A DNA stretch of 64,000 nucleotides from NCBI GenBank assembly GCA_965204745.1, contig OZ242010.1, positions 1,280,001 to 1,344,000 of the forward strand, read 5' to 3'. Made by a program: the position numbers and the translations under genes. This document shows, one piece after another, positions 2,357-53,085 of this stretch; positions within the stretch are counted from its first letter, which is position 1; every line of letters begins with the position of its first letter. This DNA is from Candidatus Latescibacterota bacterium. Lineage in GTDB: Bacteria > Latescibacterota > UBA2968. Below the pieces are notes generated by a model. The model did no database searches. It was given only the letters and a program-made list of their open reading frames with translations, and had not been told where the DNA came from.

Positions 2357-2390
2357 GGAGAACTCCTTGGATCAGTTGTCAGTTGTCAGT

Positions 2391-3006
2391 TGTCAATGCG
2401 AATTAAGAGTTGGATCCATCGCGTACTTGTCCTTTCTTGAGGGCGCAACCCTTTCACCCTTAAAGGTAAGGAGCACGCGATGGATTGGCAAGATAAACTC
2501 ATTGACTTGTCTGTCTCTATTTGTCAGCAGTATGACCAAAAGCATCTGTGGTTTTATACACAACGCATGAGCAAGAACGACACGCCGACCTTCACAGATG
2601 AAGAAGTGCTGACGATCTCTTTGTTTGGGATCATGCAACAGCACACGCAGATCATGGCGATTGATACCTATACGAAGGATCATCTGTCCGACTGGTTTCC
2701 CAATCTGCCCACTTATGCAGGCTATCCTTAAAAGACACGCTTAGCAAGCAACAGAACCTGATCTTCGAGACGCCGGTGAAGCGAAAGAAGGGACAAGAAA
2801 GCCTGACCGAAGCCGAAAAAGACTTTTCTCGGGCGGTTTCGAGCATGCGACAGCCGATAGCGGCCTTGTTCAGTTGGATTGAACGAAAGACGAACCTCTC
2901 GAGGGCGTCTCGGGTACGATCAGAGGATGGCTTACTCGTTCATGTCTTTGGGCGATTGACCGCGGCTTGCTTCTTACTCGCTTTCTACTCTTAATTCGCA
3001 TTGACA
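2391..3006 (+). mobile_element. IS982-family element, internally deleted (non-autonomous)
   Basis: Perfect 20-bp inverted repeats TGTCAATGCGAATTAAGAGT (2391-2410 / 2987-3006). Transposase N-terminus (FTDEEVLTI, WFPNLPTY) joined to C-terminus (RQPIAALFSWI, VRSEDGLLVHVFGRL) with the core missing. Exact ends uncertain because they merge with heptamers. Confidence 0.8.
2480..2994 (+). pseudogene. IS982-family transposase remnant (fragments 2480-2731 and ~2732-2994)
   Basis: Stop at 2729-2731; total far shorter than a full IS982 transposase. Confidence 0.8.
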
Positions 3007-3027
3007 ACTGACAACTGACAACTGATC

Positions 3028-4077
3028 TTACTTGATTTCCAACATGCGTTCCACGGCTCTGAACGCGCGGATGCGGATATCTTCGGGCACTTCGATGATT
3101 TGCTCGTCGTTGAGCAGGGCATTGCGCGTGTCTTCAAGGGTGATTTCGTTCATGTGCGGGCAACGGATGCTGCACAGGCCCACCATCTCCTTGTCTGGAT
3201 TTTCCGCGGCGATGTTGTCGCCCATGCTGCATTCCGTCAACAGCAAGTACCGCTCCGCATTCATTTCGCGCACGTAATCCACCATGCGGGACGTGCTGCC
3301 GGAAAAGTCGGATGCGGCGACCACTTCTGGGCTGCATTCCGGGTGCGCGAGGACGACGACATCCGGGAATTGTATGCGGACGTTTTCAATGTCCTGTACC
3401 GTGAATTGCTCGTGGACTTCGCACCGCCCGTGCCAGCCGATCATTTCGTATTCAAGGCCGGGTTTGGGATCGGCAAACCCCGTTGTCGTGGGAAAGATGA
3501 TGCGTTTATCGGTTTCTCGTGCGACATTGGCGGCCAGGTATTCGTCGGGCAAAAAGATAATGGTGTCCGAGCCGAGCGATTCGACGACCTTGTGGGCATT
3601 GCCCGAGGTGCAACAAATATCGCATTCGGCTTTGACATCGGCATAGGTGTTGATATACGTGACGATGGGAACGCCCGGATATTGGTCGCGCAAGTTGCGA
3701 ACGTCTCGCGCCGTAATGCTCGCGGCCAGCGAACACCCGGCAACGCGCGCGGGCAAGAGCACGGTTTTGTCCGGGTTGAGAATTTTCGCGGTTTCGGCCA
3801 TAAAGCGCACGCCGCAAAACACGATGGGATCCGCGTCTGTCTCTGCGGCTTTGCGCGACAATTCGAGCGAATCGCCCACGACATCGGGCACGGAGTGATA
3901 AAGCGCGGGCTCCATGTAGTTGTGCCCGAGGATGATCGCCCCGCGCTCTTTTTTCAGGGTGTTGATTTCAAAAGCCAGTTCGGCTTTGTAGCGCAATTCG
4001 ATATCCGGCACAATGCCGTCCAATCGCTCGGCCATCTGTCGATAGGTCTCTTTTAAGGTGGTGGCAGTCAGTGCCAT
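3028..4077 (-). CDS. nadA: Quinolinate synthase A
   Basis: GHNY, GDSLEL, VFCGVRFMAET, GCSLA, YINT, CEVH, AHPEC, GSTS, TE, CPHM motifs; start set at ATG 4077 with CAGGAG RBS. Confidence 0.96.
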   Translation of the reverse strand: MALTATTLKETYRQMAERLDGIVPDIELRYKAELAFEINTLKKERGAIILGHNYMEPALYHSVPDVVGDSLELSRKAAETDADPIVFCGVRFMAETAKILNPDKTVLLPARVAGCSLAASITARDVRNLRDQYPGVPIVTYINTYADVKAECDICCTSGNAHKVVESLGSDTIIFLPDEYLAANVARETDKRIIFPTTTGFADPKPGLEYEMIGWHGRCEVHEQFTVQDIENVRIQFPDVVVLAHPECSPEVVAASDFSGSTSRMVDYVREMNAERYLLLTECSMGDNIAAENPDKEMVGLCSIRCPHMNEITLEDTRNALLNDEQIIEVPEDIRIRAFRAVERMLEIK

Positions 4078-4182
4078 AACAGTTCGCTCCTGTTGTTGGG
4101 GTCTTATGGGCTGTTTGAACAAAGATATAAAAAGATGGCCTTTGTTGCAAGGCTTGGGTTATCGGATACGCGGGAGTGAAAA

Positions 4183-5247
4183 ATGAAATTTGTGATTCGC
4201 GCAGGCGGGGTCGGCACGCGGCTGTGGCCCTTGAGCCGCGAGCACGACCCCAAGCAGTTTCACGCCTTGACTGGCGAGCGCACGATGTTGCAAGAGGCGG
4301 TTCACCGCCTGCGACCACTCGCGGCAATGGACGACCTGTACATTTCCACGAGCGCGACATTGGTGCATCGCGTGCGCGAACAAGTGCCCGAGTTGGCACT
4401 TGAAAACATCATCGTCGAACCGGCACAGCGCAATACCGGCCCCGCGGTGGGCTTGGAGTGCGCCTTATTGGAAGCCCGATTTCCCGGATGCGCGATAGCG
4501 AGTTTGGGATCGGATCACCACATCGGCGCGCCGGGGGAATTTTGCCGGCTGCTCAAAGTGGCAGAAGACGCACTATCAGATCGCGCCGAGACCCTGTTCA
4601 CGCTCGGCGTCAAACCCACGCGGGCCGACACGGGGTTTGGCTATCTCCAAAAGGGCGAGGTGATCGCCACGGTGAACGATGAGCCGATCTACGATGTGGC
4701 GGCATTTGAGGAAAAGCCCGATGCAGAGACCGCAAAGACCTACTTGGAGAGCGGTCGCTATTTGTGGAACAGCAATATGTTTGTGTGGAAAGCGAGCGCG
4801 ATGCTGCGTCTCTTCGCCGAGTTTGAACCCGAGATCTACGCCCTTCTCGAACAAATTGCCGCCGCCGTTGGCGTTGGACGCGAAGCCGAGGTCATTGCCC
4901 GCGTGTACCCGCAGATGAAAACCGCGACCATCGACCACGCGATTCTCGAGCGCGCCTCCCGTGTTGCGACCGTAGAGGCCGATATGGATTGGTGCGACCT
5001 CGGCGCGTGGGATGCGTTGAAAGAGGTGTTGCCCGCAGATGCGAATGGCAATATATTGCGTGGCAATGTGCTGTCGCTCAATGCCAAAAACGCGACGGTC
5101 TATGGCGGCAAAAACAAAGTGATCGCGTTGGTCGATGTCGAGGATTTAATCGTGGTTGACACAGGCGACGCCCTGCTTATTTTGCCCCGCGATAGGTCTC
5201 AGCGCGTGAAGGATGTGGTTGCGGCATTGGACGAGCGGTATGTGTGA
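4183..5247 (+). CDS. manC: Mannose-1-phosphate guanylyltransferase
   Basis: AGGVGTRLWPLSR..PKQF, EPAQRNTGPA, FEEKPD, WNSNMF, WCDLGAW. Confidence 0.88.
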   Translation: MKFVIRAGGVGTRLWPLSREHDPKQFHALTGERTMLQEAVHRLRPLAAMDDLYISTSATLVHRVREQVPELALENIIVEPAQRNTGPAVGLECALLEARFPGCAIASLGSDHHIGAPGEFCRLLKVAEDALSDRAETLFTLGVKPTRADTGFGYLQKGEVIATVNDEPIYDVAAFEEKPDAETAKTYLESGRYLWNSNMFVWKASAMLRLFAEFEPEIYALLEQIAAAVGVGREAEVIARVYPQMKTATIDHAILERASRVATVEADMDWCDLGAWDALKEVLPADANGNILRGNVLSLNAKNATVYGGKNKVIALVDVEDLIVVDTGDALLILPRDRSQRVKDVVAALDERYV

Positions 5248-5256
5248 CGAAAGGAG

Positions 5257-7471: not shown

Positions 7472-7562
7472 TCTTTTTTATGAGGATCCCCACCATGACC
7501 AAATCCGGAAAATTTGAACGGGTTGTCGCCAGTTGTACCCCGCTCGTGTTTTTGTAGCTAAA

Positions 7563-7668
7563 CTCGCCTCTTACGTCTCGCCTCTTACGTCTTGCCTCTT
7601 GCCTCTTGCCTCTTGCGTCTCGCCTCTTGCCTCTTACGTCTTGCCTCTTACGTCTTGCCTCTTGCCTT
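7563..7668. repeat. Degenerate heptamer array, family B (CCTCTTG/CCTCTTA/CGTCTCG), ~15 units
   Basis: Read directly. Same family at ~18325-18352, 23430-23460, 28355-28372, 29868-29920, 30816-30966, 32327-32355, 32660-32730, 50760-50787, 60860-60952, 63535-63560. Confidence 0.9.
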
Positions 7669-8999: not shown

Positions 9000-9001
9000 A
9001 A

Positions 9002-9153
9002 TCAGTAGTCAGTAGTCAGTAGTCAGTAGTCAGTAGTCAGTAGTCAGTAGTCAGTAGTCAGTAGTCAGTAGTCAGTAGTCAGTAGTCAGTAGTCAGTAGT
9101 CAGTAGTCAGTAGTCAGTAGTCAGTAGTCAGTAGTCAGTAGTCAGTAGTCAGT
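9002..9153. repeat. Perfect tandem heptamer array (TCAGTAG)x21, family A (GTCAGTN)
   Basis: 21 perfect units plus TCAGT right after the sulfatase stop. Shorter family-A arrays at 2371-2395, 3002-3026, 16914-16926, 32311-32325, 33763-33895, 35078-35110, 38737-38750, 40121-40153, 44419-44432, 58251-58289, 60977-60992. Confidence 0.97.
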
Positions 9154-9172
9154 CCACCCAACCCCAAACCCC

Positions 9173-9195
9173 GTAGGGGCAGGCCCGTGCCTGTC
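9173..9195. repeat. GTAG-type REP palindrome (representative copy)
   Basis: GTAG followed by a GC-rich imperfect palindrome. Further copies at 9779-9805, 33731-33754, 37743-37770, 38690-38714, 40167-40192, 46410-46434, 50839-50865. Confidence 0.8.
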
Positions 9196-9263: not shown

Positions 9264-9333
9264 CAATGCGAATTGAGAGTAGAAAGCGAGTAAGAAGCAA
9301 GCCACAACCCATCATCCAAAGACATGAACGAGG
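9264..9333 (-). mobile_element. IS982 right-end fragment (~70 bp)
   Basis: Reverse complement matches ~2936-3003, including the TIR. Confidence 0.75.
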
Positions 9334-10163: not shown

Positions 10164-13100
10164 CCTCCCGATCCGCTCACTTGTTGGCTCTGGTCGCGTT
10201 GGGCATGCTGGTGGCATCGGGGCCGGCGTTTGCCCAAACCGACTACGACTACGACAACGACCGCCTGATTGACATCACGACTTTGGCGCAACTCAACGCC
10301 ATGCGTTGGGACCTCAACGGCGATGGTGTTGTGTCAAGCACCGACTCTACGAACTACTTCACCGCCTTCAGCAACCCCGCCTCGGGCATGGGGTGTCCGT
10401 CCGCCGGCTGTAATGGCTACGAACTGCTCAACAACTTGGACTTTGACGAGAACAACGATGGCGCAATCACCTCAGCAGACGCCACCTACTGGAACAGCGG
10501 CTTAGGATGGGAGCCAATCGGCTCCGACGCCAACCCAGCGTCTCGATACACAGGCGATTTCAAGGGCAACGGACACACCATCGACAACCTGTTCATCAAT
10601 CGCAGCTCCACCGACGTCGGGCTGTTCGGCGGTATTAGCTCCACATCCCGCATCGAGACCTTGGGCGTAACCAACGCCAATGTATCTGCGAGAAAATTCG
10701 TCGGCATTCTCGCAGGAACCAGTTACGGCGACATCTTCGCCTGTTACACCACCGGCGCGGTAAGCGGCAGCGACCAGCAGGTTGGCGGGGTGATAGGCTA
10801 CATGCAAACGCCTCAATCACAACCGGGCCTCCACTCCAGCTACTCCACCGCTTCCGTCACCGCGCCTACATACGCCGGAGGGCTTGTGGGACGTTTAGCC
10901 CGTGGCAGAATACAGTATTCATACGCCGCAGGTGCCGTCAGCGGCGCAGGATTCAACGGCGGGCTTGTAGGAAGCATAAACCCAGCCAATCCATCTGTCT
11001 CCTCCGCAACCGCTAGCTACTACGACATCACGACCACCGGACAGACCGGCGACCTCCGCGCCACGGCGGGCTACGCCACCGCAGACCTCCAGCGCCCCAC
11101 CGGCTACACCGGCATATACGCCGGCTGGAACACCAACATCGACGGCGTGATGGGCAACGACGACCCGTGGTACTTTGGCGCGACGAATCAGTACCCCGTG
11201 TTGAAGTATGCCGGCCTGGACACCACCGCGCAATTTGCGTTGCAACCGAGCATACCGACGGGTGTGGCCGTGACGTCCAATGGGGACACCTTGTACGTAC
11301 ACTGGCGTGCGGCGAGTCAAGCGACGGGGTACACAGTGCAGTGGAAATCCGGCATGCAAAGCTACGACGCCGCGCGTCAGGCCACCACCACGGCTACGCG
11401 CTACAAGATCGCCTTGACGTCGGGGACGACCTACACAGTGCGCGTCATTGCCAGCAAGACCGGTGTGCGCGATGGAACCTCGGGCGAGGTCATGCGCGCT
11501 CCAGGTCTCACCAATTACGATCCCGATGGCGATGGCCTCATCGCTATCACCACGCTGGCGCAACTCAACGCCATGCGCTGGGATATCAATGGCGATGGTG
11601 CTATAGACTCAAGTGCCACGACCGCCGATACGACTGCCTACAACGCCGCCTTTTCCGGCCGGGACACCGACACCGCCATCCGTATGGGCTGCTTCCCGGG
11701 ATGCACCGGCTACGAACTGCTCGCCAACCTGGACTTTGACGAGAACAACGACGGCGAGATCACCTCAGCAGACGCCACCTACTGGAATAGCGGCGCCGGC
11801 TGGGACCCTGTGGGGCCTTACAGCGGCACGTTCCAAGGCAACAACAATACGATCTCCCACCTGTTCATCGACCGGGGGACTCGGCATAATGCAGGATTGT
11901 TCCATGCGGTTGAGGGCAATATTTCGGGGTTGGGGTTGTTGAATGTGGATGTGACCGGCAATGACCGCGTGGGTGCTCTGACCGGTGTTCAGGGTGGTGG
12001 GGGCACCATCTCGTCGTGTTATGTGACGGGTCGCGTTTCGGGGGCGAAGTGGGGTGTGGGTGGTTTGGTCGGTCAGTCTCATCGCACTATGGGCACCAAC
12101 CGCATTGTGAGTAGCTACGCGAACGTCTCTGTGAGCATTCCTGCGACTGTGACGAGTGACGGGAAGGCTGGCGGGTTGGTGGGTTATCTGAGATTTCAGA
12201 CCGAGGTGGTGGCGTCTTACGCCCTGGGCCCGGTGTTCGTGGGACACAGTAGCGGGGTGGGCGGCGGGTTGGTGGGTGAACTCGCGAGCGGCAGTGGCGT
12301 GACCGCCAGCTACTCGATAGGGCGGGTCACGGGTGACTGCACGAAAGGCGGTTTGGTGGGCACTTCGGCTGGTACAGTGGTCGATAGCTACTGGGACACA
12401 CAAGAAAGCGGCATTGCCGACGATGGCGATACGGCTATGCCGGAGGGTGAGCCGACTGCCGACTTACAATCGGTCACGTCTGCGACAGGCATCTATAACG
12501 TTTGGGACATGCTGACCATAGATGCTTCGGGGACCAGCGATGATGCTCCCTGGACCTTTGGCGCGATGGATCAGTATCCGGTCTTGAAGTATGCCGGCAT
12601 GGACACCACCGTGCAATTTCAGCTTCAACCCGCGATAGTGACGTTGGCACTGACGCCCTCGACGCTCTCGGAAAGCGGTGGGATGAGCACCGTGACCGCG
12701 ACGCTGTCTCACCCATCGAGCGCGGCGACGACGATCACGGTGCGCCCGGTGGCGGGTGCTTACACGGTGGGGATGGATTCGACGATCACCATCGCGGCCG
12801 GGAGCACGGCGAACGCGTCGGACACGGTGGTCATCACAGCGGTGGACAATACCCAAGACGCGCCTAATCGCGACGTGGACATGTCCGTTGTGGCAGACAA
12901 CGCCCAGGGCAGTGTGGTCCGCCTGATCGAGATAACGATCATCGATGATGACGCGCCGCCGAGGCTCTCGATCAGTTCGCCGAGTGCGGTTGAGGGCACT
13001 GCCCTGACGTTCACCGTTAGATTGAATGCGGTGAGCGGCAAAGAGGTGACGGTGGCGTATGCAGACGCGGGCACGGGCACCGCGACTTCGGGGACGGACT

Positions 13101-14026
13101 ACACCGCGCTTACCGCAGGGACTCTGACCTTCGCGGCGGGCACGACCACGACCAGCCAGACCATCGCTGTTACTGTGACCGACGACTCGGATGATGAGCA
13201 GAACGAGACCGTGGAGGTGACGTTGAGCAACGCGGTCAATGCCACCTTTGATGGCGAGGCTACGAGCCTCACCGGCACCGGTACGATTATCGATGACGAT
13301 GGCGCGTCTGCGCTGAGTATCGGTTCGCCAAGCGTGATTGAAGGCGTGACCGGCGCGACCCTGACCTTTCAGGTGTACCTACGCCCAGCGCACAACACGT
13401 TACAAGTGACGGTGGCGTATGCAGACGCGGGCACGGGCACCGCGACTTCGGGGACGGATTACACCGCGCTTACCGCAGGGACCCTGACCTTCGCGGTAGG
13501 CGATACCATCCAGACCATCGCTGTTACTGTGACCGACGACTCGGATGATGAGCAGAACGAGACCGTGATCGTGACGCTGAGCAGTGCGACCAATGCGACC
13601 ATAAGCACGGCGGATGGCACAGGAACGATTATCGATGACGAAACCCCGAGTGCCAACTTGGATGTGGATGGCGATGGCCGGGTGAGATTGTTCTCGGATA
13701 TAATCCTGGTCATTCGATATGTCCTCTTCTTCCGGAACGAGGCCCTCCTCAGAGGGAACGTCATCGAGCCAACTGCCACGCGCACGACCGCTCAAGAAAT
13801 TGAACCCTACCTCGACACGTTGGTCAATCAGAACATTCTCGATGTGGATGGCGATGGCGATGTGAGGCTGTTCTCGGATATAATCCTGGTCATTCGATAT
13901 GTCCTCTTCTTCCGGAACGAGGCCCTCGTCAGAGGGAACGTCATCGAGCCAACTGCCACGCGCACGACCACTCAAGCCATTGAACCCTACATCCGAAGCC
14001 TCTATCCCGACTCCCACTTCCAATGA
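10160..14026 (+). CDS. Large secreted/surface protein: two GLUG-rich modules with DxNGDG Ca-binding loops, FN3-like domain, two Calx-beta repeats, two C-terminal dockerin-like repeats
   Basis: Signal peptide ending AFA-Q; repeated GGLVG; duplicated LAQLNAMRWD.NGDG and GYELL.NLDFDENNDG; near-identical TATSGTDYTALTAGTLTFA units; LDVDGDG...LFSDIILVIRYVL x2. Confidence 0.85.
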   Translation: MTSRSAHLLALVALGMLVASGPAFAQTDYDYDNDRLIDITTLAQLNAMRWDLNGDGVVSSTDSTNYFTAFSNPASGMGCPSAGCNGYELLNNLDFDENNDGAITSADATYWNSGLGWEPIGSDANPASRYTGDFKGNGHTIDNLFINRSSTDVGLFGGISSTSRIETLGVTNANVSARKFVGILAGTSYGDIFACYTTGAVSGSDQQVGGVIGYMQTPQSQPGLHSSYSTASVTAPTYAGGLVGRLARGRIQYSYAAGAVSGAGFNGGLVGSINPANPSVSSATASYYDITTTGQTGDLRATAGYATADLQRPTGYTGIYAGWNTNIDGVMGNDDPWYFGATNQYPVLKYAGLDTTAQFALQPSIPTGVAVTSNGDTLYVHWRAASQATGYTVQWKSGMQSYDAARQATTTATRYKIALTSGTTYTVRVIASKTGVRDGTSGEVMRAPGLTNYDPDGDGLIAITTLAQLNAMRWDINGDGAIDSSATTADTTAYNAAFSGRDTDTAIRMGCFPGCTGYELLANLDFDENNDGEITSADATYWNSGAGWDPVGPYSGTFQGNNNTISHLFIDRGTRHNAGLFHAVEGNISGLGLLNVDVTGNDRVGALTGVQGGGGTISSCYVTGRVSGAKWGVGGLVGQSHRTMGTNRIVSSYANVSVSIPATVTSDGKAGGLVGYLRFQTEVVASYALGPVFVGHSSGVGGGLVGELASGSGVTASYSIGRVTGDCTKGGLVGTSAGTVVDSYWDTQESGIADDGDTAMPEGEPTADLQSVTSATGIYNVWDMLTIDASGTSDDAPWTFGAMDQYPVLKYAGMDTTVQFQLQPAIVTLALTPSTLSESGGMSTVTATLSHPSSAATTITVRPVAGAYTVGMDSTITIAAGSTANASDTVVITAVDNTQDAPNRDVDMSVVADNAQGSVVRLIEITIIDDDAPPRLSISSPSAVEGTALTFTVRLNAVSGKEVTVAYADAGTGTATSGTDYTALTAGTLTFAAGTTTTSQTIAVTVTDDSDDEQNETVEVTLSNAVNATFDGEATSLTGTGTIIDDDGASALSIGSPSVIEGVTGATLTFQVYLRPAHNTLQVTVAYADAGTGTATSGTDYTALTAGTLTFAVGDTIQTIAVTVTDDSDDEQNETVIVTLSSATNATISTADGTGTIIDDETPSANLDVDGDGRVRLFSDIILVIRYVLFFRNEALLRGNVIEPTATRTTAQEIEPYLDTLVNQNILDVDGDGDVRLFSDIILVIRYVLFFRNEALVRGNVIEPTATRTTTQAIEPYIRSLYPDSHFQ

Positions 14027-14289
14027 AAGCCTGTTCCCTGACCGCCACAGATGAAGATGGCGATGAGAACACCCTGAGTTTCTTCTTCACCATCAGCGCG
14101 AATCTGATGCTGTCCTTTGGCGATGCGAGTGTGGAATACGCGGAAGCAAGAGATCGAATCCCTTTTCCTCATCTTCGCCGCCGGCTTTGGCTCGACAGGC
14201 TGAACGACGAAAGACGCGAAAAACAAAGTAAAGCCCGGGTTCACAGTGAACTCGGGCTTTACTTTTTGGAATTGGAACCTACCCACTAG
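14023..14289 (+). pseudogene. Short ORF with a putative Ig-repeat fragment
   Basis: LTATDEDGDENTLSFFFTI resembles the last strands of putative-Ig repeats; the 3' part runs through a terminator. Confidence 0.3.
14225..14267 (+). terminator. Rho-independent terminator
   Basis: AAAGTAAAGCCCGGGTTCAC-A-GTGAACTCGGGCTTTACTTTTT. Confidence 0.8.
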
Positions 14290-16976: not shown

Positions 16977-17049
16977 CTGTGTTCTTAGGCGAAGCGGACG
17001 TTTTCGCGTCTTTTCGCTTTTCCCGTCTTCCCTCTTGTATCTTGGAAGT

Positions 17050-17240
17050 AAGGTTTAATTAGGTGTTGCGCCCTCGCATCGAGACAAGCCATCTTGATGC
17101 CCGGCTCGGGGAAGGCCGGTCCCTCTCGAAGGCGATGACCTTGTAGGTGAGATAGGCCCCCCGACCGCCGGGTCTATGCCGAAGCGTATCTAAGTCCCTT
17201 GAGGCTGCATATACAAGACCGGTAGACTTGGCGTCAATGG
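17050..17240 (+). ncRNA. Predicted IS110 bridge RNA (copy 1); boundaries approximate
   Basis: Target loop: TCCCTCT (17120-17126) equals left target+core; AGGTGAG (17145-17151) is the reverse complement of core+right target. Donor loop: AGCGTATCT (17183-17191) and ATACAAG (17211-17217). Confidence 0.82.
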
Positions 17241-17300
17241 TCGGGATCGAACTCGAGCGCACACCAGACCCTTACAAACCCCTCATCACAGGAGGCCCCC

Positions 17301-18308
17301 ATGTCGAAATCTCAACCCGCTTTTGCCGGCATTGATGTCCGTGCCCGCACGTTGTCCGTTGCCCTGTCCAGACCTGGACAAGTTGTCATGCAAGCGACCT
17401 TTGCCAATGATCCCCAAGCCCATAAGCGGTTGCTGAAGTGGCTCACCAAGGGCGGGCACATGGTCTCTGTCTGCCTTGAAGCGACCGGGCTTTACAGCTT
17501 GGGGGTGGCCTTGGCCTTGCATCGGCATCGCCACACAAAGGTCATGGTCGTCAATCCCAAAGCGATGAGCAAGTACGGTCAAGCCTGCATGCAACGAGCC
17601 AAGACGGATGCGAAGGATGCGTTGTTGATCATGGATTATGCCGAGCGCATGCCGTTTGTGCCTTGGCAAGCGCCGAGTGAGCAACGGCTCCAACTGCAAG
17701 CCCTCACCAGACGTATTGACCAACTCAAGCAGGAGATCATCCGCGAACAGAGCCGCAACCACGCGCAAAGCTACCACATCCGGAGCACACGGCGCATCGC
17801 ACGCGATATTCAGGTGAATATCCGACACCTCAAACGCCGGATTGCCTACTTGGAAAGCCAAGCCCTCGATCTCGTTTTGCACGATGAGACCCTCAAGCGC
17901 GCCTACCAACGCCTCTGCTCGACGCCTGGCATCGCACAAACGAGTGCCTTGCGGCTCTTGGCCGAGTTGACCCTTTTGCCAGAGGAGATGCAACCGCCCC
18001 AGTGGGTCGCACATGCAGGCCTGGATCCCAAACCCAAACAATCCGGAACCGCCAACCCACAAAGACGCATCTCGAAAACCGGGAATAAGTACCTCCGCCA
18101 TGCCCTCTATATGCCTGCCTGGGTGGCCAGCAGACACGAAGTCCATGTCAAAGCCTTCTATGACCAACTCATTGCCAGAGGCAAGAAACCTTTGCAGGCT
18201 ATCGTTGCGGTGATGCGAAAGTTGCTCCATTCAATCTGGGGCATGTTGCGGCATGACCAAGATTTTAAGGGCGAAAAATTCTATCGAATCACCCCGAAAA
18301 CCCCTTGA
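17301..18308 (+). CDS. IS110-family recombinase (DEDD RuvC-like plus Tnp serine domain)
   Basis: GIDV, LEATG, KTDAKDA, PGI, QSG, RISKTGNKYLR.ALY, A.VAVMRKLL. Confidence 0.95.
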   Translation: MSKSQPAFAGIDVRARTLSVALSRPGQVVMQATFANDPQAHKRLLKWLTKGGHMVSVCLEATGLYSLGVALALHRHRHTKVMVVNPKAMSKYGQACMQRAKTDAKDALLIMDYAERMPFVPWQAPSEQRLQLQALTRRIDQLKQEIIREQSRNHAQSYHIRSTRRIARDIQVNIRHLKRRIAYLESQALDLVLHDETLKRAYQRLCSTPGIAQTSALRLLAELTLLPEEMQPPQWVAHAGLDPKPKQSGTANPQRRISKTGNKYLRHALYMPAWVASRHEVHVKAFYDQLIARGKKPLQAIVAVMRKLLHSIWGMLRHDQDFKGEKFYRITPKTP

Positions 18309-18491
18309 CCTTTTAAGAGAGTATCTCACCTCTTCCCGCCTCTTGCCTCTCCCCATCATACTCAGAGTTTTGGGTTTCTTCAAGGATTTTTTGTACCGAA
18401 CGCGGCGCGGGTTTTGGGTTGCGATACGTTTTGGGTCGCGTTATTGTTTTGGCGGATGCTGTCTCCAATCTGATACAATGGGAGGATCGCT

Positions 18492-26946: not shown

Positions 26947-27079
26947 TGCGCTTTGAAAAATATTACTCTCCTCGTCATTTCGGCGAAATCAAGTCCGTTC
27001 CCCAAGCTATCGGCAATTAAATTAGTGCAGACATTGCCTTGGGGCGGTGGGGCGGTCTCGCCTCTTGTATGTTGTCAGA

Positions 27080-27270
27080 AAGGGTTAATTTAGGTGTTGC
27101 GCCCTCGCATCGAGACACGCCATCTTGATGCCCTGCTCGGGGAAGGCCGGCGCCTCTTGAAGGCTATGACCTTGTAAGTAAGATAGGCCCCCCGACCGCC
27201 GAGTTGATACCGAAGAGTATCTAAGTCCATTGAGGCTGCATATACAAGACCGGTAGACTGGGCAAACAGT
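27080..27270 (+). ncRNA. Predicted IS110 bridge RNA (copy 2); boundaries approximate
   Basis: Target guides CGCCTCT (27151-27157) and AAGTAAG (27176-27182); donor guides AGAGTATCT (27214-27222) and ATACAAG (27242-27248). Confidence 0.82.
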
Positions 27271-27331
27271 CGGGACGCGAACCCGAGCGCACACCAGACC
27301 CCTTCCCCACCCCTCATCACAGGAGGCCCCG

Positions 27332-28339
27332 ATGTCGAACACTCAACCCGCTTTTGCCGGCATTGATGTCCTTGCCCACACGTTGTCCGTTGCCCTGTCC
27401 AGACCCGGACAAGGGGGCATGCAAGCCACCTTTGACAACGCGCCTCGGGCGCACAAGCACCTGTTGAAGTGGCTCACCCAGGGCGGGCGCATGGTCTCGG
27501 TCTGTCTCGAAGCGACCAGGCGTTCTAGCTTGGGGGTGGCCTTGGCCTTGCATCAGCATCGCTGTACGCAGGTCATGGTCGTCAATCCCAAAGCGATGAG
27601 CAAGTACGCTCACGCCTGCATGCAACCGGCAAAGACGGATGCGAAGGATGCGTTGTTGATCCGCGATGATGCCGAGCGCATGCCCTTTGTGCCTTGGCAA
27701 GCGCCGAGCGAGCACCGGTGCCAACTGCAAGCCCTCACCAGACGCATTGACCAACTCAAGCAGGAGATCATCCGCGAACAGAGCCGCAGCCACGCGCAGA
27801 GCGACCCCATCCGGAGCACACGGCGCATCGCACGCGATATTCAGGTGAATATTCGACCCCTCAAACGCCGCATTGCCTACTTGGAAGACCAAGCCCTCAA
27901 ACTCGTTTTGCACGACGAGACTCAAAAGCGTGCCTACCAGCACCTCTGCTCGGTGCCCGGTATCGCCCAAACGAGTGCCTTGCGACGCTTGACCGAGCTG
28001 GCCTCCTTGCCAGACGCGATGGAACCGCCCCAATGGGTCGCTCATGCAGGCCTGGATCCCAAACCCAAACAATCCGGGATGACCAACCCGGAAAGACGCA
28101 TCTCGAAAACCGGGAATAAGTACCTCCGCCATGCCCGCTCTATGCCTGCCTGGATGGCCAGCAGACACGAAGTCCATGTCAAAGCCTTCTATGACCAACT
28201 CATTGCCCGCGGCAAGAAACCTTTGCAGGCTATCGTTGCGGTGATGCGAAAATTGCTCCATGCGATCTGGGGCATGTTGCGGCATGACCAAGATTTTGAG
28301 GGCGAGAAATTCTATCGAATCGCCCCGCAATCCCCTTGA
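27332..28339 (+). CDS. IS110-family recombinase, full length but with several non-conservative substitutions
   Basis: DEDD and QSG retained; EATG>EATR, MDY>RDD and ALYM>ARSM relative to copy 1. Confidence 0.9.
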   Translation: MSNTQPAFAGIDVLAHTLSVALSRPGQGGMQATFDNAPRAHKHLLKWLTQGGRMVSVCLEATRRSSLGVALALHQHRCTQVMVVNPKAMSKYAHACMQPAKTDAKDALLIRDDAERMPFVPWQAPSEHRCQLQALTRRIDQLKQEIIREQSRSHAQSDPIRSTRRIARDIQVNIRPLKRRIAYLEDQALKLVLHDETQKRAYQHLCSVPGIAQTSALRRLTELASLPDAMEPPQWVAHAGLDPKPKQSGMTNPERRISKTGNKYLRHARSMPAWMASRHEVHVKAFYDQLIARGKKPLQAIVAVMRKLLHAIWGMLRHDQDFEGEKFYRIAPQSP

Positions 28340-28442
28340 CCTTTAAGAGAGTATCTTACCTCTTGCCTCTTACTTGGGATAGGGCTTGCGGTAGGGTTGT
28401 GGGGGTAATCCGCGCAATCCCCTAATCCGTTTAATCCGCGAT

Positions 28443-29846: not shown

Positions 29847-29929
29847 AGATGCTCCTTAACAAACTCCGTCTCTCCTCTTACCTCTCCCCTCTTGCCTCTT
29901 ACGCCTTTCCCCTCTCGCCTCCATTTGCA

Positions 29930-30793: not shown

Positions 30794-30966
30794 GGTGTCG
30801 TTCCTTTCAATAAAAGGTGAGAGGTGAGAGGCAAGACGGGAGAAGACCTACACGCACTGCTCGCCTTTCAACGACCTCTCGCCAGTTGTACCCCTTTTGT
30901 GCCTTTTGTGCCTCTTGTGGCTAAACTTCCATCTCACCTCTCGCCTCTCACCTCTCGCCTCTCGCT

Positions 30967-32274
30967 TTAACTCCACAATCGGTCATTCACGCGCTCATTG
31001 TTCCACGCATCGGTAGGCTCGAAATAGCCGGGCAAGTCCGGGTTGATGTGTGCTTTGAGGGCGGCTTCGTTGAGGTCGATGCCGAGTCCGGGGGTGTCGG
31101 GCACGCGGATGGAGCCGTTTTGGACGATGGGATTGGGCAAGCCCGTGACGAGTGTGTTCCAAGGCGGATAATCCACTGCGTGGCACTCGAGCGCGAGAAA
31201 ATTGTGCGTGGCAGCAGCGCAATGCACGCTGGCCATGGTCGCGACGGGCGTGGCGGCCATGTGTAGTGCCATGGGAATGCCGCATTCTTCGGCGTAGTCG
31301 CCAATGCGCTTGGTTTCGAGGATGCCGCCCGAGGTGGCGAGGTCCGGGTGGATGATGGACACGGCGCGGTTGTCGAGGAGGGGTTTGAAATTTTCGAGGA
31401 GATAAATGTCTTCGCCCGTGCAAACCGGGGTCGCGGTTGCGTTTTTGAGGCGCGCCCATTGATCGGTGAATTGCCACGGGATCATGTCTTCGAGCCACGC
31501 GAGGTTGAACCGCTCGAGGGCGCGCGCGAGGCGGATGCACGATTCGACATTGATATGCCCGAAGTGATCCGCGGCCAGAGGGATTTCGTAGCCGACGATA
31601 TCGCGCACGACCGCCACGTATTGAACGAGCGCGTCAATGCCTTTGTCCGTGAGTTGGATGCCGGTAAACGGGTGCATGACCTGCGCGGTTTCCAGCATGC
31701 CAGCGGGACGGGATGGGTTGCGCGCCTCGCGGTAATACGGATGGTGAAGCGCGGTTTCCAACATGCCAGCGGGATGGGATACCGCGCCGTCAATGCCTTT
31801 GATCAAGCGCACGCCAATGTCCATTTTGAGGAACGTAAAGCCGCTGTCCATGCGCGCTTTGAGGCGGTTGCCCATTTCTTCTGGGTTTGGGGTTGAAGCC
31901 GTGTCGCAGTAGATGCGGATGTCGTCGCGGAATTTGCCGCCCGCGAGTTGGTAACAGGGCACGCCATACGCCTTGCCCGCCAAGTCCATCAGCGCCATTT
32001 CCACGCCGCATACGCCGCCTGCCTGCCGCGCGTGCCAGCCGAATTGTTTGATTTTGCGAAAGACTTTGTCCACGTTGCAGGGGTTTTCACCCAAGAGTTG
32101 ACGCTTGAGTTGCAAGGCGTAGATGTGGCTTGCCCCATCGCGCACTTCGCCCAAGCCGTAGATGTCCTGATTCGTGTCCAAGCGAATGAGGGTCGAGCGC
32201 ATAGGCACGCCCGCGAGGTTGACGATACGCAGATCCGTGATTTTGAGTTCAGACGGGGAGGAATGCGCGTTCAT
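30967..32274 (-). CDS. Mandelate racemase/muconate lactonizing enzyme family protein
   Basis: GLGEVRDG, EMALMDLAGKA, FLKMD, DH, WLED, TGED, HPD; CAGGAG RBS. Confidence 0.9.
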   Translation of the reverse strand: MNAHSSPSELKITDLRIVNLAGVPMRSTLIRLDTNQDIYGLGEVRDGASHIYALQLKRQLLGENPCNVDKVFRKIKQFGWHARQAGGVCGVEMALMDLAGKAYGVPCYQLAGGKFRDDIRIYCDTASTPNPEEMGNRLKARMDSGFTFLKMDIGVRLIKGIDGAVSHPAGMLETALHHPYYREARNPSRPAGMLETAQVMHPFTGIQLTDKGIDALVQYVAVVRDIVGYEIPLAADHFGHINVESCIRLARALERFNLAWLEDMIPWQFTDQWARLKNATATPVCTGEDIYLLENFKPLLDNRAVSIIHPDLATSGGILETKRIGDYAEECGIPMALHMAATPVATMASVHCAAATHNFLALECHAVDYPPWNTLVTGLPNPIVQNGSIRVPDTPGLGIDLNEAALKAHINPDLPGYFEPTDAWNNERVNDRLWS

Positions 32275-32385
32275 GAAGTTCTCCTGTTGGCAAATGGCGG
32301 TAGGGCGGGGACTGACAACTGACAAAGGTGAGAGGTGAGAGGCAAGACGGGAGAAGACTTACACTCACTGCTCGCCTTTGAATTA

Positions 32386-32625
32386 GGTTGTGTTGACATT
32401 TCATTTTTTTTGTTGCGCGAGGGGACCTATCCCCCGGCCCCTTTCCTACAAGGAAAGGGGAGTAAAGCACCTTTGATGGCTTCTCGCTCTGGTTGCTCTG
32501 ATGGCGTTGACCGAGGGCATAAAGCGATTAAAAATCCCTCATCAATCCCCTCGCAAAACCGCTCACAGTTCTCCCCTTCCTCAAAGGAAGGGGGGTTAGG
32601 GGGGTAGGTCCCGATACAGAACCTA
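32386..32625. mobile_element. Partial IS5(IS427-like) MITE end with nested palindromic repeats
   Basis: TA-GGTTGTGTTGACATTT end; internal blocks shared with 44434-45020. Confidence 0.55.
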
Positions 32626-32732
32626 GCTATCGCCAGTTGTACCCCGCTCGTGGCTAAACTTCCATCTCCCCTCTTGCATCTTCCTTCTTCCCTCTCCCGT
32701 CTTACGTCTCACCTTTCTTACGTCTTACCGCT

Positions 32733-33701: not shown

Positions 33702-33895
33702 GTGGCTCTCCTTTAAAAAAAATAAGCAACACAGGCACGGGAGCCTGTCCCTACGGGTGATGGTAGTCAGTGGTCAGCCCCCACCTGACCCTACCGCCCA
33801 AGTAGTCAGTGGTCAGTCCCCGCCCACTCCCCACCACTATGTTCATTAGAATTAGTCAACTGACCACTGACCACTGACCACTGACCACTGACAAC

Positions 33896-35077
33896 GGCGT
33901 TGTTGCATAAATCGCTATTGCCTGCGAGTTGGGATTGCAAAAAGACAGGCTCCTTCGTAGTTGGGCATATGGAGCACCGAAACCACTCACCCTTTCTCAC
34001 CAGGAACCTGTCATGCCCAAGATAACCGCTTCCAAGACCGCCGTCAAGGCCCCTCGTCGCCTTCGTCGCCCGCGCTGTGAGCCTGTCTATCGGGTTCGGA
34101 ACTGGGCGGCCTACGAGGCCGGTCTCAAGCAGCGGGGCAGTCTGACGTTTTGGATCACGCCGCAAGCCCTTCGGGGGTGGTACCATCAAGGGCCAACGCA
34201 ACGGGGGAGGCAAAACACCTTTTCAGATTTGGCTATTCAAACGGCGTTGATGGTGCGCTTGGTCTATGCCTTGCCCCTGCGTCAAACCGAGGGGTTTCTC
34301 ACGTCCATCCTGGCGTTGATGGGGGTGGCTTTGCGCGTGCCCGATCATACGACCCTCTGCCGGCGACAGGGCGATTTGAATGTGGATTTACCTGTCCAAT
34401 CCCATCATGCGCCGATCCACTTAGTGGTGGATTCCACCGTCCTGAAAGGGTATGGCGAAGGGGAATGGAAGGTGCGTCAACACGGCTTTTGCAAGCACCG
34501 GACTTGGCGCAAATTGCACATCGGCGTCGATGAGGCCACCGGCGAGCTTGTCGCACAGACCCTGACCTCGGCAAGCGTTGATGACGCTTCGCAGGTCAAC
34601 CCCTTGCTCGATCAAGTCCCGGCCCCTGTGATATGATGGGTGCAGATGGCGGCTATGACAAACGCAAGGTCTTCAACACATGCGCCGCCCCCAAACAAGG
34701 AGCCCCCATCCGACCCCTGATTCCCCCGCGCCATGACGCGAAAATTGAACAACACGGAAACAGGAAGGCCCCCCCCTCGCTCGCGATGAAATCATCCGAG
34801 CCATCCGGCGTCAAGGCCGCCGACAGTGGAAACGCACCAGTGGCTATCATCGTCGCTCGGTCGTTGAAACCCAACTATGCCGCTACAAACAACTCATTGG
34901 GCGGCAGTTGCACGCACGAAGTCAGGAGAACCAAGAAACGGAAGCGCGGTTGGGATGTGCGGTGCTCAATCGCATGATGAGGATCGCGAAACCCGTGTCC
35001 TATCCCAGAGAAAGAGGGGCTTAAATCTCGCGGGAAAGGGACGAACTTTGCCACGACAACATTTATGCAACAACGCC
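33896..35077 (+). mobile_element. IS5-family element, IS903-like group, with 9-bp target duplication
   Basis: Perfect 17-bp TIR GGCGTTGTTGCATAAAT (33896-33912 / 35061-35077); TSD ACTGACAAC at 33887-33895 and 35078-35086. Confidence 0.93.
34013..35024 (+). pseudogene. IS903-like transposase, frameshifted
   Basis: NWAAYEAGLKQRGSLTFW, LRQTEGF, DSTVLK.YGEGEW, WRKLH, ADGGYD; breaks at ~34635 and in a C-run at ~34770. Confidence 0.85.
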
Positions 35078-35134
35078 ACTGACAACTGACTACTGACTAC
35101 TGACTACTGATTTTTCGGGACGATACGAGGCGCG

Positions 35135-39946: not shown

Positions 39947-40320
39947 GAGTGCTCCTTTGTTGATGAACCTCTCCCCAAGGCGGGAAGACCTGCTCCCACC
40001 TTTCTCGCAGGCATAAGCAAAGCCTTGGGGTTGGGCAGTTGGGTGGCCCTCTCCCGTCTCTTAAGCAATCAGCAAAACAATCGGTCAGCACATACATTGC
40101 CTTGGGGCGGAAGGGTGGGGACTGACCACTGACCACTGACTACTGACCACTGCACCTTGTATCTTCGGGCGAGCACGGGGCATCGCCCCTACACACACCG
40201 CTCGTGCCTTTGAACGGGCTATCGCCAGTTGTACCCCTTTTGTGCCTTTGAACGGGCTATCGCCAGTTGTACCCCGCTCGTGCCTTTTGTGGCTAAAATC
40301 CCGTCTCCCCTTTTTATTTT

Positions 40321-42934: not shown

Positions 42935-43103
42935 GGTCGTGTTGACATTTTATTTTTTGCGCTGAAAGTGGTAGCAAAACAGAGAAATCCGAAGAATCGA
43001 CCTGTCCCAATTTCTTAAACCGAGAGCATATCCTGCGATAGGGCTTGATTTTCCCGATAAACCGCTCAATTCAGTTGCAGTGCTCGTAAATGTCAACACG
43101 ACC
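42935..43103 (-). mobile_element. 169-bp MITE derived from an IS5 (IS427-like) element, TA duplication
   Basis: TIR GGTCGTGTTGACATTT at both ends, each flanked by TA; minus strand encodes IERFIGKIKPYRRICSRFKKL (IS5 transposase C-terminus). Confidence 0.85.
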
Positions 43104-44433: not shown

Positions 44434-45020
44434 GGTCGTGTTGACATTTTATTTTTTGACCTGACATTACGCACAGATTAGCAACTGTGTTGCTTGCTGC
44501 TTTAAGGCGTTTGGTCCTACAGCCTCGTTGGTTGCCTCCGATGCCTTCGGCGACCTACTTTTTTCAACAGCAAAAAAAAGTAGGCGAGCGGGGTACAACT
44601 GCCCCAGCAGTTCAAAAATGCCGCTCTCAAACGCCGAGAGGCTTGCACAGCGCAAAGCGCTTTTGTAACAGCACGACATGCGTCAGCCTGCAAAGTGGGT
44701 TGCAACATGGATGTTGGTTGCGAGACGGACTTGCGCGCTGTGCGTGATGGCTTTATCCGAGGGGGTTTTGCGAGGGCATAAAGCGATTAAATATCCCCCA
44801 TCAATCCCCTCGCAAAACCGCTCACAGTTCCCCCTTCCTCACAGGAAGAGTTCTGGTTGCTCTGATGGCGTTTTGCGAGGGCATAAAGCGATTAAATATC
44901 CCCCATCAATCCCCTCGCAAAACCGCTCACAGTTCCCCCCTTCCTCGCAGGAAGGGGGGTTAGGGGGGTAGGTCCCGATAAGAAGCGACTGTTCTAGTTT
45001 CTCAAAATGTCAACACAACC
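44434..45020 (-). mobile_element. 587-bp MITE of the same IS427-like family carrying nested palindromic repeats
   Basis: TIR GGTCGTGTTGACATTTT / AAAATGTCAACACAACC flanked by TA; internal tandem duplication ~44766-44840 / ~44870-44945. Confidence 0.8.
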
Positions 45021-49814: not shown

Positions 49815-50708
49815 ATGAACTATCGACAACTCGGCAAAAACGGCCCGGAGGTGCCGGTCATCGGCTTGGGCGCGTGGCCCATTGGCGGCGGGATGGGCGA
49901 CTTGGACGAGAGCACTTGCATCGCCACTGTGCGCACGGCTATCGACAGCGGCATTACCCTGCTCGACACGGCCCAAGCCTATCGCACGAGCGAAGCCACA
50001 TTGGGCAGGGCACTCAAAGACGGCTATCGCGAGCGGTGCTTTCTCGCCACAAAAGTCAGCCGCCACTATTCGCGCAAAGCCATTGACCGCGCCATTGAAA
50101 ACAGCTTGCGCGCACTCGATGTCGATTGCGTTGACCTGTATCAGATTCACAGTTGGAACGCGCAATATCCCATTGCGGAGAGCATGGAAGCGATGGCGCG
50201 GTTGCAAGAACAGGGCAAAACGCGCTTTATCGGGGTGTCCAATTTCAATGCTGTGCAACTGCAACAGGCGTACGACATTGCCCCGTTTCACGCTAACCAG
50301 CCGCGCTACAACATGTTTGACCGCGCCATCGAAGCCGAAGACTTGGGCTTTTGCAACCGCACGGGCATTGGCATCTTGGCCCACAGCCCTTTGGGCAAAG
50401 GCTTGCTCACGGGCAAATACGCGCCCGACCACGTCTTTGCCCCAGGCGATGAACGGGCGCGTTCCCCTCGGTTCCAAGGCGACCTCTTCGCGCAGTATCT
50501 CGCCATGGCAGACCGGTTGCAGGCTGTCGCCGCAGACAAAAATATCACGCTGGTGCAACTCGCCATCGCTTGGCTTTTGCGCCGCGAAGAAGTGACGTGC
50601 GTGCTCGTCGGCGCGAAAAATCCCGACCAAGTCGAGGAACACGTCGGCGCGGCAGACGTCGCATTCTCGGACAGGGAATTGGAACGGATCGAGGATATTT
50701 TGCGATAG
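49815..50708 (+). CDS. Aldo/keto reductase
   Basis: IGLGAW, DTAQAY, ATK, DLYQIH, IGVSNF, SPLGKGLLTGKY. Confidence 0.92.
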   Translation: MNYRQLGKNGPEVPVIGLGAWPIGGGMGDLDESTCIATVRTAIDSGITLLDTAQAYRTSEATLGRALKDGYRERCFLATKVSRHYSRKAIDRAIENSLRALDVDCVDLYQIHSWNAQYPIAESMEAMARLQEQGKTRFIGVSNFNAVQLQQAYDIAPFHANQPRYNMFDRAIEAEDLGFCNRTGIGILAHSPLGKGLLTGKYAPDHVFAPGDERARSPRFQGDLFAQYLAMADRLQAVAADKNITLVQLAIAWLLRREEVTCVLVGAKNPDQVEEHVGAADVAFSDRELERIEDILR

Positions 50709-50901
50709 GCGGAAAGCAAGGTGCGTGCCTCGCCGCCCTACCGCAAGCCCTATCCCCAAGTAAGAGGCAAGAAGTAAGAGGCGAGAGCCACCCACCGCCC
50801 TACCGCCGCTTCGTCCTTCCCATCCGCTACATCCTTCGGTAGGGACAGGCCCCCGTGCCTGTCCCTAGTTAACCAGCAGATTCGCCGACAGGAGATCGCC
50901 C

Positions 50902-52380: not shown

Positions 52381-52401
52381 TCTCTTGATTCCGCGTATAT
52401 T
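52372..52401 (+). promoter_or_regulatory. Sigma70-like promoter
   Basis: TTGACA-N18-TATATT upstream of the DUF1992-like gene. Confidence 0.5.
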
Positions 52402-52442
52402 CACCGCAGATGATCCATTCGCCAAGTGCTCGGAGAAATGCC

Positions 52443-52652
52443 ATGGGCAAAACGATCAGCCGCACGCCGGATGGGAAGTTGGAAAGGCGCACGCCCGATG
52501 AACTGTTGCGCGATGCTGTGGCAGGTGATATGGACTTGCCCGGCAAGGGCAAAGCGCTCGACTTAAAGGCGTATTTCCAACCCGACGCGGAACACCGCAT
52601 GGCGGGCAAAATTATGCGCGACAACAACGTGCTTCCCCCGCAACTTGGTTGA
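52443..52652 (+). pseudogene. DUF1992 (DnaJC28 domain)-like gene truncated by an IS5 remnant
   Basis: LPGKGKALDL....EHRMAGKIMRDNNVLPP stops exactly where transposase-derived sequence starts. Confidence 0.6.
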
Positions 52653-53014
52653 GCGGTTTATCGAGAAAATCAAGCCCTATCGCAGAATATGCTCTCGGTT
52701 TGAGAAACTGAAACAGTCGCGCCTTATCGGGACCTACCCCCCTAACCCCCCTTCCTGTGAGGAAGGGGGGAACGGTGAGCGGTTTTGCGAGGGGATTGAT
52801 GAGGGATATTTAATCGCTTTATGCCCTCGCGCAACGCCATCAAAGAAACTTTACTCCCCTTTCCTCGTAGGAAAGGGGCCGGGGGATAGGTCCCCTCGCG
52901 CAACGCCATCAGAGCAATCAGACCGAGAAGCCATCAGAGGAAACGCCTTAAATGAGCAAGCAACACAGTTGCTACTCTGTGCGTAACGTCAAAAAATAAA
53001 ACGTCAACACGACC
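52645..53014 (+). mobile_element. IS427-like right-end remnant with nested palindromes
   Basis: VERFIEKIKPYRRICSRFEKL; end ...CGTCAACACGACC-TA; much of it is the reverse complement of parts of 44434-45020. Confidence 0.8.
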
Positions 53015-53085
53015 TACTGACCGTAGCCTTGGGAACAACTACATCTCATTTTTCGTCAAAAGCCAACCACAACGAGGAGGACGTT

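Follow-up and report, generated by a model that had tools for sequence, protein, structure and literature searches.

Four insertion sequence (IS) families in the genome of a Candidatus Latescibacterota bacterium very probably target two abundant families of tandem heptamers, each through a separate specificity encoded by the element itself, and the heptamer arrays would then be a safe harbour for insertions in effect only. We analyzed a 64,000-nucleotide stretch of this genome (GenBank assembly GCA_965204745.1, contig OZ242010.1, positions 1,280,001 to 1,344,000; hereafter, the window) together with the whole genome that holds it (G000), a single contig of 5.48 Mb with 56.5% G+C. The closest relative is a sister species, G018, and other relatives are labelled G001, G006, G008, and G016. 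Heptamer family A is (ACTGACN)n, which reads NGTCAGT on the opposite strand, and family B is the pyrimidine-rich (TCTYNCS)n. Three families with DDE transposases, namely IS903-like elements, IS982-like elements, and IS427-like elements with their MITEs (miniature inverted-repeat transposable elements), insert in A arrays, and an IS110 family inserts in B arrays. The evidence comprises enrichment in arrays, a partition between A and B, fixed insertion registers, reconstructed target arrays that are in phase, and covariation between the putative guides of IS110 and its flanks.

Tandem Repeats Finder (TRF) detects many period-7 arrays in the window, of two kinds, A and B. Genome-wide, 7 is the commonest repeat period (1,195 of 4,547 TRF rows), and nearly all of these arrays have units of family A or B. 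A first-pass annotation of the window had described a CCTCTYR unit, which is TCTYNCS in a different register. A mask requiring two units and allowing one mismatch, applied to the whole genome, yields 635 arrays of family A, 18.4 kb in all, and 1,163 of family B, 36.1 kb in all, or 626 and 1,069 once merged; on a shuffled 2 Mb sequence it gives 7 A and 114 B matches, so the B mask includes some chance matches. When the genome is compared with itself, 1.23 Mb has a second copy at 80% identity or more.

Transposon families were identified genome-wide from repeated ORFs (open reading frames) and ends. The census includes 52 full copies and one partial copy of IS110, 56 IS903-like ends, 120 ends of IS982-like elements and their deletion derivatives, and 165 IS427-like MITE ends (the last two counted with at most one mismatch), as well as 13 copies of an IS4-like element, an 823-bp IS427-like element that accompanies the many MITEs, TnpB/IS605-type elements, and an IS607-like serine recombinase. 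An end was said to touch an array if one lay within 10 nt on one side, for which the intergenic background is 2.9% for A and 4.2% for B. By this measure A arrays are touched by 37 of the 56 IS903-like ends (p = 5e-43), 65 of the 120 IS982-like ends (p = 4e-66), and 31 of the 165 MITE ends (p = 2e-16; 18.8%, as against 2.8% of intergenic TA sites), and B arrays by none of them. Conversely, 37 of 42 IS110 right ends touch B (p = 1e-45) and none touches A. The counts for the remaining groups are low: three of 48 ends of the IS427-like IS and one of 15 IS4-like ends touch A, none of either touches B, and the nine TnpB-element ends touch neither. The array users are thus four of at least seven transposon families, and IS4-like and TnpB elements avoid the arrays. 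Every one of the 52 full IS110 copies lies in a B array.

The first-pass annotation had proposed that the arrays are shared landing pads, with DDE elements on A and RNA-guided IS110 on B. The enrichment over intergenic background that this entails is clear for four families (p from 2e-16 to 4e-66), and the division is as described: all 133 array-touching DDE ends are on A, all 37 array-touching IS110 right ends are on B (Fisher p = 3e-38), and no IS110 end meets an A array. The split is absolute, but A and B are not independent pads, as a B array is found no more than 30 bp away from 202 of the 626 A arrays (vs 9% for random intergenic positions); DDE ends come to within 14 nt of five B arrays, as expected from this adjacency. 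The accompanying statement that nearly every IS boundary touches a heptamer went too far. In the window the mask finds an array at two of two IS903 ends, two of four IS982-like ends, three of four IS110 ends (four of four by eye), and one of seven MITE ends; three further window MITE ends adjoin a single ACTGAC-like unit.

A pattern of this kind could arise if insertion were random and only insertions in harmless arrays survived selection. The arrays are non-coding, and IS903-like insertions outside arrays are in A/T-rich, apparently intergenic spots, as this explanation would have it. However, A and B arrays make up 2.3% and 3.4% of intergenic DNA, respectively, yet receive 19–66% of the ends of the DDE families and all 52 full IS110 copies, and there is no cross-use between A and B although both would be equally harmless. 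Each family, moreover, uses one register of the seven available, which already contradicts random insertion. We consider this the least probable of the explanations weighed here.

The registers are best seen family by family. Members of the IS5/IS903 group have a DDE_Tnp_1_5 or DDE_Tnp_1 transposase, terminal inverted repeats, and a 9-bp target duplication (ISfinder). The IS903-like element of the window (33896–35077, plus strand, 1,182 bp) has the inverted ends GGCGTTGTTGCATAAAT and a transposase that matches PF13737 (E-value 3.6e-37; 2.2e-38 for an intact 366-aa copy), and the family makes 9-bp duplications. It lies between two plus-strand A arrays, 33859–33895 and 35078–35111, of which the first ends and the second begins with the 9-bp duplication ACTGACAAC (33887–33895 and 35078–35086), so that the duplication within an ACTGACN array reported earlier is borne out. 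Deleting the element and one copy of the duplication leaves an in-phase ACTGACN array, and the insertion point is the sole ACTGACA unit in an array that otherwise consists of C and T units. Across the genome, 35 of 37 array flanks end at the junction in ACTGACAAC or in GTCAGT (complement), and perfect 9-bp duplications are found in 12 of 22 pairs of ends, seven of them being ACTGACAAC. Pfam locates the DDE transposase of the window copy at 33929–34633, but the reading frame is split into ORFs at 33929–34636 and 34633–34977 (235 and 114 aa), whereas an intact 366-aa version exists elsewhere; judged by this frame, the window copy is probably inactive.

IS982 elements are about 1 kb long and have a DDE_Tnp_1_3 transposase, inverted ends, and a short target duplication (ISfinder). 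The IS982-like transposase matches PF13612 (E-value 1.7e-10; 41.6 bits against a cut-off of 27), and 13 of 21 pairs of ends are 950–1050 bp apart. Of 65 array flanks, 61 end in ACTGAC or GTCAGTNGTC, which is compatible with a GAC duplication, and 13 of 21 pairs have an exact duplication, of 3 or 10 bp. The preferred unit has N = T in 32 of 36 cases, though units with A, C, and T are all common (681, 544, and 457). The window holds a 608-bp derivative with intact inverted ends AATGCGAATTAAGAG (2395–3002, plus strand), which descends by internal deletion from a 986-bp element. As had been noticed, it stands in GTCAGTT arrays: GTCAGTT units precede it (2371–2394, minus strand) and AACTGAC units follow (3003–3026, plus strand, ACTGACA in array register). 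Because these flanks are mutually inverted, the derivative has no target duplication. We considered whether the inverted 25-nt flanks are an array carried by the element and rejected this, as other IS982-like flanks also end in ACTGAT and the flanks of other copies vary.

The IS5/IS427 group is characterized by a DUF4096 N-terminal part joined to a DDE domain, a length of 0.8–1 kb, and a 2–4 bp duplication (ISfinder). The 823-bp IS427-like element matches DUF4096 (E-value 7.4e-20), shows no match to a DDE domain, and has a TA duplication in eight of eight pairs; its ends have 12 of 14 terminal bases in common with those of the MITEs, GGTCGTGTTGACAT. The MITEs duplicate TA in 22 of 24 pairs, and 25 of their 31 array flanks end in GTCAGTA or ACTGACTA. 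Four MITEs lie in the window, all on the plus strand. One of 169 bp (42935–43103) has a TA duplication and is followed by TA-CTGACC, a single unit; one of 587 bp (44434–45020) is inserted at the TA of ACTGACC-ACTGAC-TA-CTGCAC; and a partial copy (52636–53014), intact at the right end alone, is again followed by TA-CTGACC. In all three the TA is succeeded by CTGAC or CTGCA (junctions at 43103, 45020, and 53014), in agreement with the TA duplications beside ACTGAC-type units that had been described. The fourth (32386–32622; its right end is degenerate and the coordinate approximate) is not in an A array; it interrupts the conserved unit found ahead of a B array. MITEs also contain a short module of palindromic sequence, GGGACCTATCCCCCGGCCCCTTTCCTACAAGGAAAGGGGAG or a variant of it (in the window at 32420–32470, 44900–44970, and 52720–52900), which occurs elsewhere too and forms the start of more than 100 repeat boundaries.

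The IS110 family differs in its enzyme and in its ends. Both window ORFs and the genome representative have a DEDD RuvC-like domain (PF01548) and a Transposase_20 domain (PF02371), with E-values of 2.8e-23 and 1.3e-19 in copy 1 and 3.4e-17 and 2.3e-15 in copy 2. Copy 1 (17037–18323, plus strand) consists of a left non-coding end with a bridge-RNA-like region (about 17037–17300) and a recombinase ORF at 17301–18308 (Pfam match 17301–18305); its core copies are TCTT at 17033–17036 and TCTC at 18324–18327, the latter opening a plus-strand B array (18324–18354). Copy 2 (27067–28353, plus strand; recombinase ORF 27332–28339, Pfam match 27332–28336) belongs to a second subfamily with guide segments CGCCTCTT and AGTAAGATA and is followed by a B array at 28354–28374 (plus strand). 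Each is preceded by CCTCTT and followed by TCT[CT]ACCTCTT, which places both in CCTCTYR arrays, as first proposed. The junctions of all 52 full copies in the genome are alike: CCTCTT abuts the left terminus GTAT, the right terminus is GAGAGTATCT, a TCT[TC] core is present on both sides, and there are no long terminal inverted repeats. In 48 of the 52 reconstructed empty sites, at least four in-register B units run through the junction. Two copies are arranged in tandem at 1121583–1124200 of G000 (copies 1121583 and 1122880) with a single heptamer, ACCTCTT, between them, and so occupy neighbouring units of one array. A search of genome contigs for the recombinase returned two distant loci only.

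The left end of IS110, of about 260 nt, folds into two stem-loops with internal loops. One loop of the predicted RNA contains an 8-nt segment equal to the left-flank sequence and a second segment complementary to the right junction; the other loop corresponds to the termini of the element itself (GTATCT, and for the second the complement of TCTTGTAT). Four guide classes are present in G000. In 43 of 52 copies the first segment is identical to the left flank of that copy; in 49 of 52 the second fits the right junction with no more than one mismatch, and element or core bases account for five of its nine. Guide and flank covary across five subfamilies in three species. The first segment, and the second written as target, are CCCCTCTT and TATCTTACC in the main subfamily of G000, CGCCTCTT and TATCTTACT in its second subfamily, TCCCTCT and TATCTCACC in window copy 1, CGCCTCT and TATCTCCC in G018, and, in two variants from G016, TCCTCCTT or CCCCCTT with TATCTTTTC. 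On inspection, all 13 IS110 copies fetched from G018 are in B arrays, and none of the seven fetched from G016 is in a clear B array, one having two B-like units on the right. On these matches, the targeting of IS110 looks RNA-guided, and we infer that the left-end RNA is made and guides recombination.

We propose that (ACTGACN)n and (TCTYNCS)n, as abundant non-coding heptamers, act as multi-copy target sequences. For IS110, guidance would be of the bridge-RNA type, with two loop segments matching CCCCTCTT and TCTTACC, which together form a B-array junction about a TCTT-like core. The 9-mer favoured by the IS903-like transposase would be ACTGACAAC, the IS982-like transposase would duplicate the GAC of ACTGAC, mostly beside A-type units, and the IS427-like transposase and its MITEs would use the TA of ACTGAC-TA-CTGAC; the registers suggest to us that the DDE preferences lie in the transposases. 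The A/B partition would then follow from each family's own specificity. As the arrays are numerous and non-coding, insertions in them, which probably cost little, would be tolerated and accumulate, creating a safe harbour in effect.

A safe harbour could also be a system of the host, maintained by selection to absorb insertions, with two pad types for two classes of transposon. Several features suit such a system: four families converge on the arrays with an absolute A/B partition, most arrays lie outside a coding mask built from ORFs (75% of the bases in A arrays and 57% of those in B arrays), and many target sites remain free in the genome (881 of ACTGACAAC and 84 of CCCCTCTTRCC). The arrays, however, are not conserved. 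A arrays of at least four units give 904 matches in G000, none in G018, and no more than 45 in any other of 150 sampled genomes of the phylum, with any match at all in 14 of 151; B arrays of at least four units give 1,412 matches in G000, 1,374 in G018, and no more than 75 in any other among 51 genomes of the order. A and B are therefore lineage-specific expansions in one or two species, and orthologous intergenic regions are often replaced. Further evidence against a host system comes from the IS4-like and TnpB elements, which ignore the arrays, and by the IS903-like and IS982-like relatives in G018 and G006, which insert outside arrays, with duplications CTACAAATC and CCAGCAAAG. In G016, the guides of the IS110 relatives are altered and the target is a different one, in agreement with those guides, from which it follows that specificity sits in the elements. 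We judge a host-maintained system improbable. The genome-wide safe-harbour system of the first-pass annotation thus stands insofar as the arrays are preferred targets throughout the genome, but not as a system, since the elements' own specificity explains the pattern and other IS ignore the arrays. Target use follows array abundance, which fits adaptation of elements to abundant repeats and leaves a small chance that elements promote arrays.

That last idea, in its fuller form, is that the elements carry or generate the heptamers and that arrays arise at insertion sites, from carried flanks or by repair after insertion or excision. It bears on several observations that weigh against targeting of pre-existing arrays. 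At G000:1886035–1888466, IS982 and IS903 copies lie within an array of GTCAGTT units that exceeds 350 bp; at the syntenic positions of G018, G016, and G001 both the array and the IS are missing, and in G008 the place is taken by different DNA. G018 and G016 also lack the B array that flanks IS110 copy 1 on the right. Array expansion also coincides with array-targeting IS, A being expanded only in G000 and B only in G000 and G018, which are the genomes whose IS target them; this would fit elements promoting arrays as well. Because two loci are empty of the array in relatives, arrays and elements are both recent, and the order of events, for which a comparison of related genomes had been suggested, rests on the in-phase duplications. 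Other difficulties concern the measurements: between one third and four fifths of DDE ends, depending on family, are outside arrays; copies within one family are not fully independent events; and the intergenic background comes from an ORF-based coding heuristic rather than gene calls. For IS110, the minimum free energy fold computed for the left end does not exceed those of shuffled sequences in stability (z = -1.05), and an Rfam scan of this region matched no family apart from one chance match to a long non-coding RNA (E-value 0.87).

Carriage or generation of heptamers by the elements is nonetheless hard to reconcile with the arrays themselves. No element end is found at 497 of 626 A arrays (about 79%) or at 985 of 1,069 B arrays (about 92%), the length and unit composition of the flanking arrays differ among copies, and, repeatedly, an array becomes continuous and in phase again when an element and one duplication are taken out in silico. 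The stretch of array that separates the IS982 and IS903 copies at G000:1886035–1888466 is more than 270 bp long. Expected excision footprints, sought in the genome as a source of arrays, gave 0, 1, and 0 matches. The MITE at 44434–45020 is absent from the orthologous site in G016, which keeps the array ACTGACCACTGACC (G018 has neither), and A arrays are present in relatives without a match to the window IS903-like element. The expectation that empty sites retain arrays thus holds at the G016 site and fails at the IS982 and IS903 locus in three relatives. The in-phase duplications, and the fact that the large majority of arrays have no element end, show that heptamers are not carried by the elements, and an origin of the arrays from the elements appears to us slightly less probable even than a host-maintained system. 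Targeting of existing arrays by element-encoded specificities remains the reading that we favour.

Synteny breaks are common at these repeats. Among five IS110 sites compared with G018, no pair of filled and empty sites was found, as all five are synteny breaks (window 17037–18323 and 27067–28353, and G000:1879701, 3595574, and 3602346). The IS982 derivative, the IS903-like element, and two of the window MITEs are also at synteny breaks, and the genes flanking the IS903-like element are not adjacent in relatives where both were matched. This suggests frequent rearrangement at these repeats.

The window also contains unoccupied arrays. A B array of TCTYNCS units at 7562–7666 (plus strand) has a B array at the orthologous place in G018, and an A array of about 21.7 GTCAGTA units lies at 9001–9153 (minus strand). 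The B array at 29869–29919 is replaced by other sequence in G018. A G-rich box resembling GGGCGGGG usually precedes A arrays, and G-rich linkers of 20–27 nt, such as GAAGGGGGTTGGGCGGGG, often join A to B arrays, for example at 32296–32354. B arrays, which are variable in length, often come directly after a conserved stretch of roughly 110 nt, AAAAAGGTGAGAGGTGAGAGGCAAGACGGGAGAAGAC...CGCCAGTTGTACCCCGCTCGTGGCTAAACTTCC, seen genome-wide and in the window at 30812–30967, 32326–32730, 7519–7562, and 40198–40287, where part of it forms a 38-bp tandem repeat. Its core motif, CGCCAGTTGTACCCC, has 282 copies, and for 97 of them there is a B array on the 3' side at a distance of up to 90 nt. We rejected the idea that B arrays are 5' leaders: a Shine-Dalgarno sequence and start lie within 45 nt of 51 of 1,097, compared with 4.2% of random intergenic positions. 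The G-rich box beside A, the position of B arrays as variable 3' tails on the conserved unit, and the explosive expansion raise a more tentative possibility, which we rate as rather unlikely: that arrays spread by a templated or mobile process and that IS families repeatedly retarget to whichever array expands.

Fixed positions within short tandem repeats are used as insertion sites by the microsatellite-targeting transposons of eukaryotes, which belong to other element classes and hosts. Tandem heptamers are likewise familiar from cyanobacterial genomes as short tandemly repeated repetitive (STRR) sequences, whose units we take to differ from those described here. Because photosystem II families had no match in this genome, which is 97.65% complete, whereas a Synechococcus control was matched, the organism is not a cyanobacterium, and STRR sequences are an analogy only. 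The work on the GGGAATC-type heptamers of Xanthomonas and Nostoc in PMC4692102 describes abundant intergenic tandem heptamers that vary in length between close relatives, and states that they are generally not associated with insertion sequences.

Closer parallels are found among IS that target repetitive extragenic palindromic (REP) sequences. The IS110 family described here resembles IS621 of E. coli and ISPpu9 and ISPpu10 of Pseudomonas putida in having a DEDD and Transposase_20 recombinase and a short core at both junctions without long inverted ends. According to PMC11208160, IS621 targets REP elements and its RNA guides pair with opposite strands; the predicted left-end RNA region here similarly has two internal loops that match target and element ends on opposite strands. 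As for the REP-targeting IS110 elements treated in PMC11208160 and PMC1525189, the target is a highly repeated intergenic sequence. In contrast to those elements, the target here is a junction within a non-palindromic tandem heptamer array, so that one array offers several targets, and relatives in three species are naturally retargeted, following whichever repeat is abundant. Tobes and Pareja (2006; PMC1525189), in whose paper IS1397 is named, report that several transposase families use repeated REP sequences and bacterial interspersed mosaic elements (BIMEs) as highly selective hot spots. Unlike the DDE elements of those systems, three DDE families here share one heptamer family, each with its own register and preferred unit variant, and a fourth, RNA-guided family uses a second heptamer family. 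The heptamers are direct tandem repeats without dyad symmetry and lack the palindrome of REPs and BIMEs; as targets for IS the arrays function in the way REPs do, without being REPs. A literature search that left subscription journals mostly uncovered turned up no paper on IS targeting of tandem heptamers. The pattern extends the known targeting of repeated intergenic DNA by IS, exemplified by REPs, to tandem repeats.

Some other features of the window and genome deserve mention. A hairpin-type repeat, GGACAGGCACGGGGGCCTGTCCCTACG, which may be a REP-like element, is common to G000, G018, and G016 (in the window at 33730–33757 and 9160–9195, at loci L022 and L033, and at several G018 loci) and often adjoins TCTTGTATCTT, which resembles an IS110 junction. 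Two IS982-like ends at 9265 and 14511 face inward 5.2 kb apart, neither touching an array and with no duplication, and between them lies a gene that encodes a 1288-aa Calx-beta/dockerin-like protein. A 3' portion of 1.5 kb from this surface-protein gene (12547–14069) recurs more than 15 times in the genome at 90–95% identity; by sequence, the protein belongs to a large family with a conserved C-terminal part, and the gene has a 180-bp internal tandem repeat at 13661–13990. The phenylalanine-tRNA ligase alpha chain (815–2353, minus strand) is of the long archaeal/eukaryotic-like type, judged by the nearest Atlas clusters. The remaining window genes are ordinary, encoding sulfatases, dehydrogenases, transporters, and others. 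Large clusters of ORFs without Pfam matches (124, 64, and 50 members) were considered as further IS, but nothing points there, and one is the antisense frame of IS110.

These observations illustrate how unrelated transposition mechanisms converge naturally, and with base-level precision, on simple tandem repeats. For RNA-guided IS110 elements, they provide natural pairs of guide and target from three sister genomes, which show retargeting in the wild and an array that amounts to many equivalent sites. For annotation they carry a warning, as the ends of IS blur into their flanks in such genomes. For genome evolution, they connect the proliferation of IS, and rearrangement, with an abrupt expansion of the heptamer arrays. 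If arrays do spread by a templated or mobile process, array and transposon loads would rise together, and the arrays would be a sink in which repeats may reach 22% of the genome with little damage to genes.

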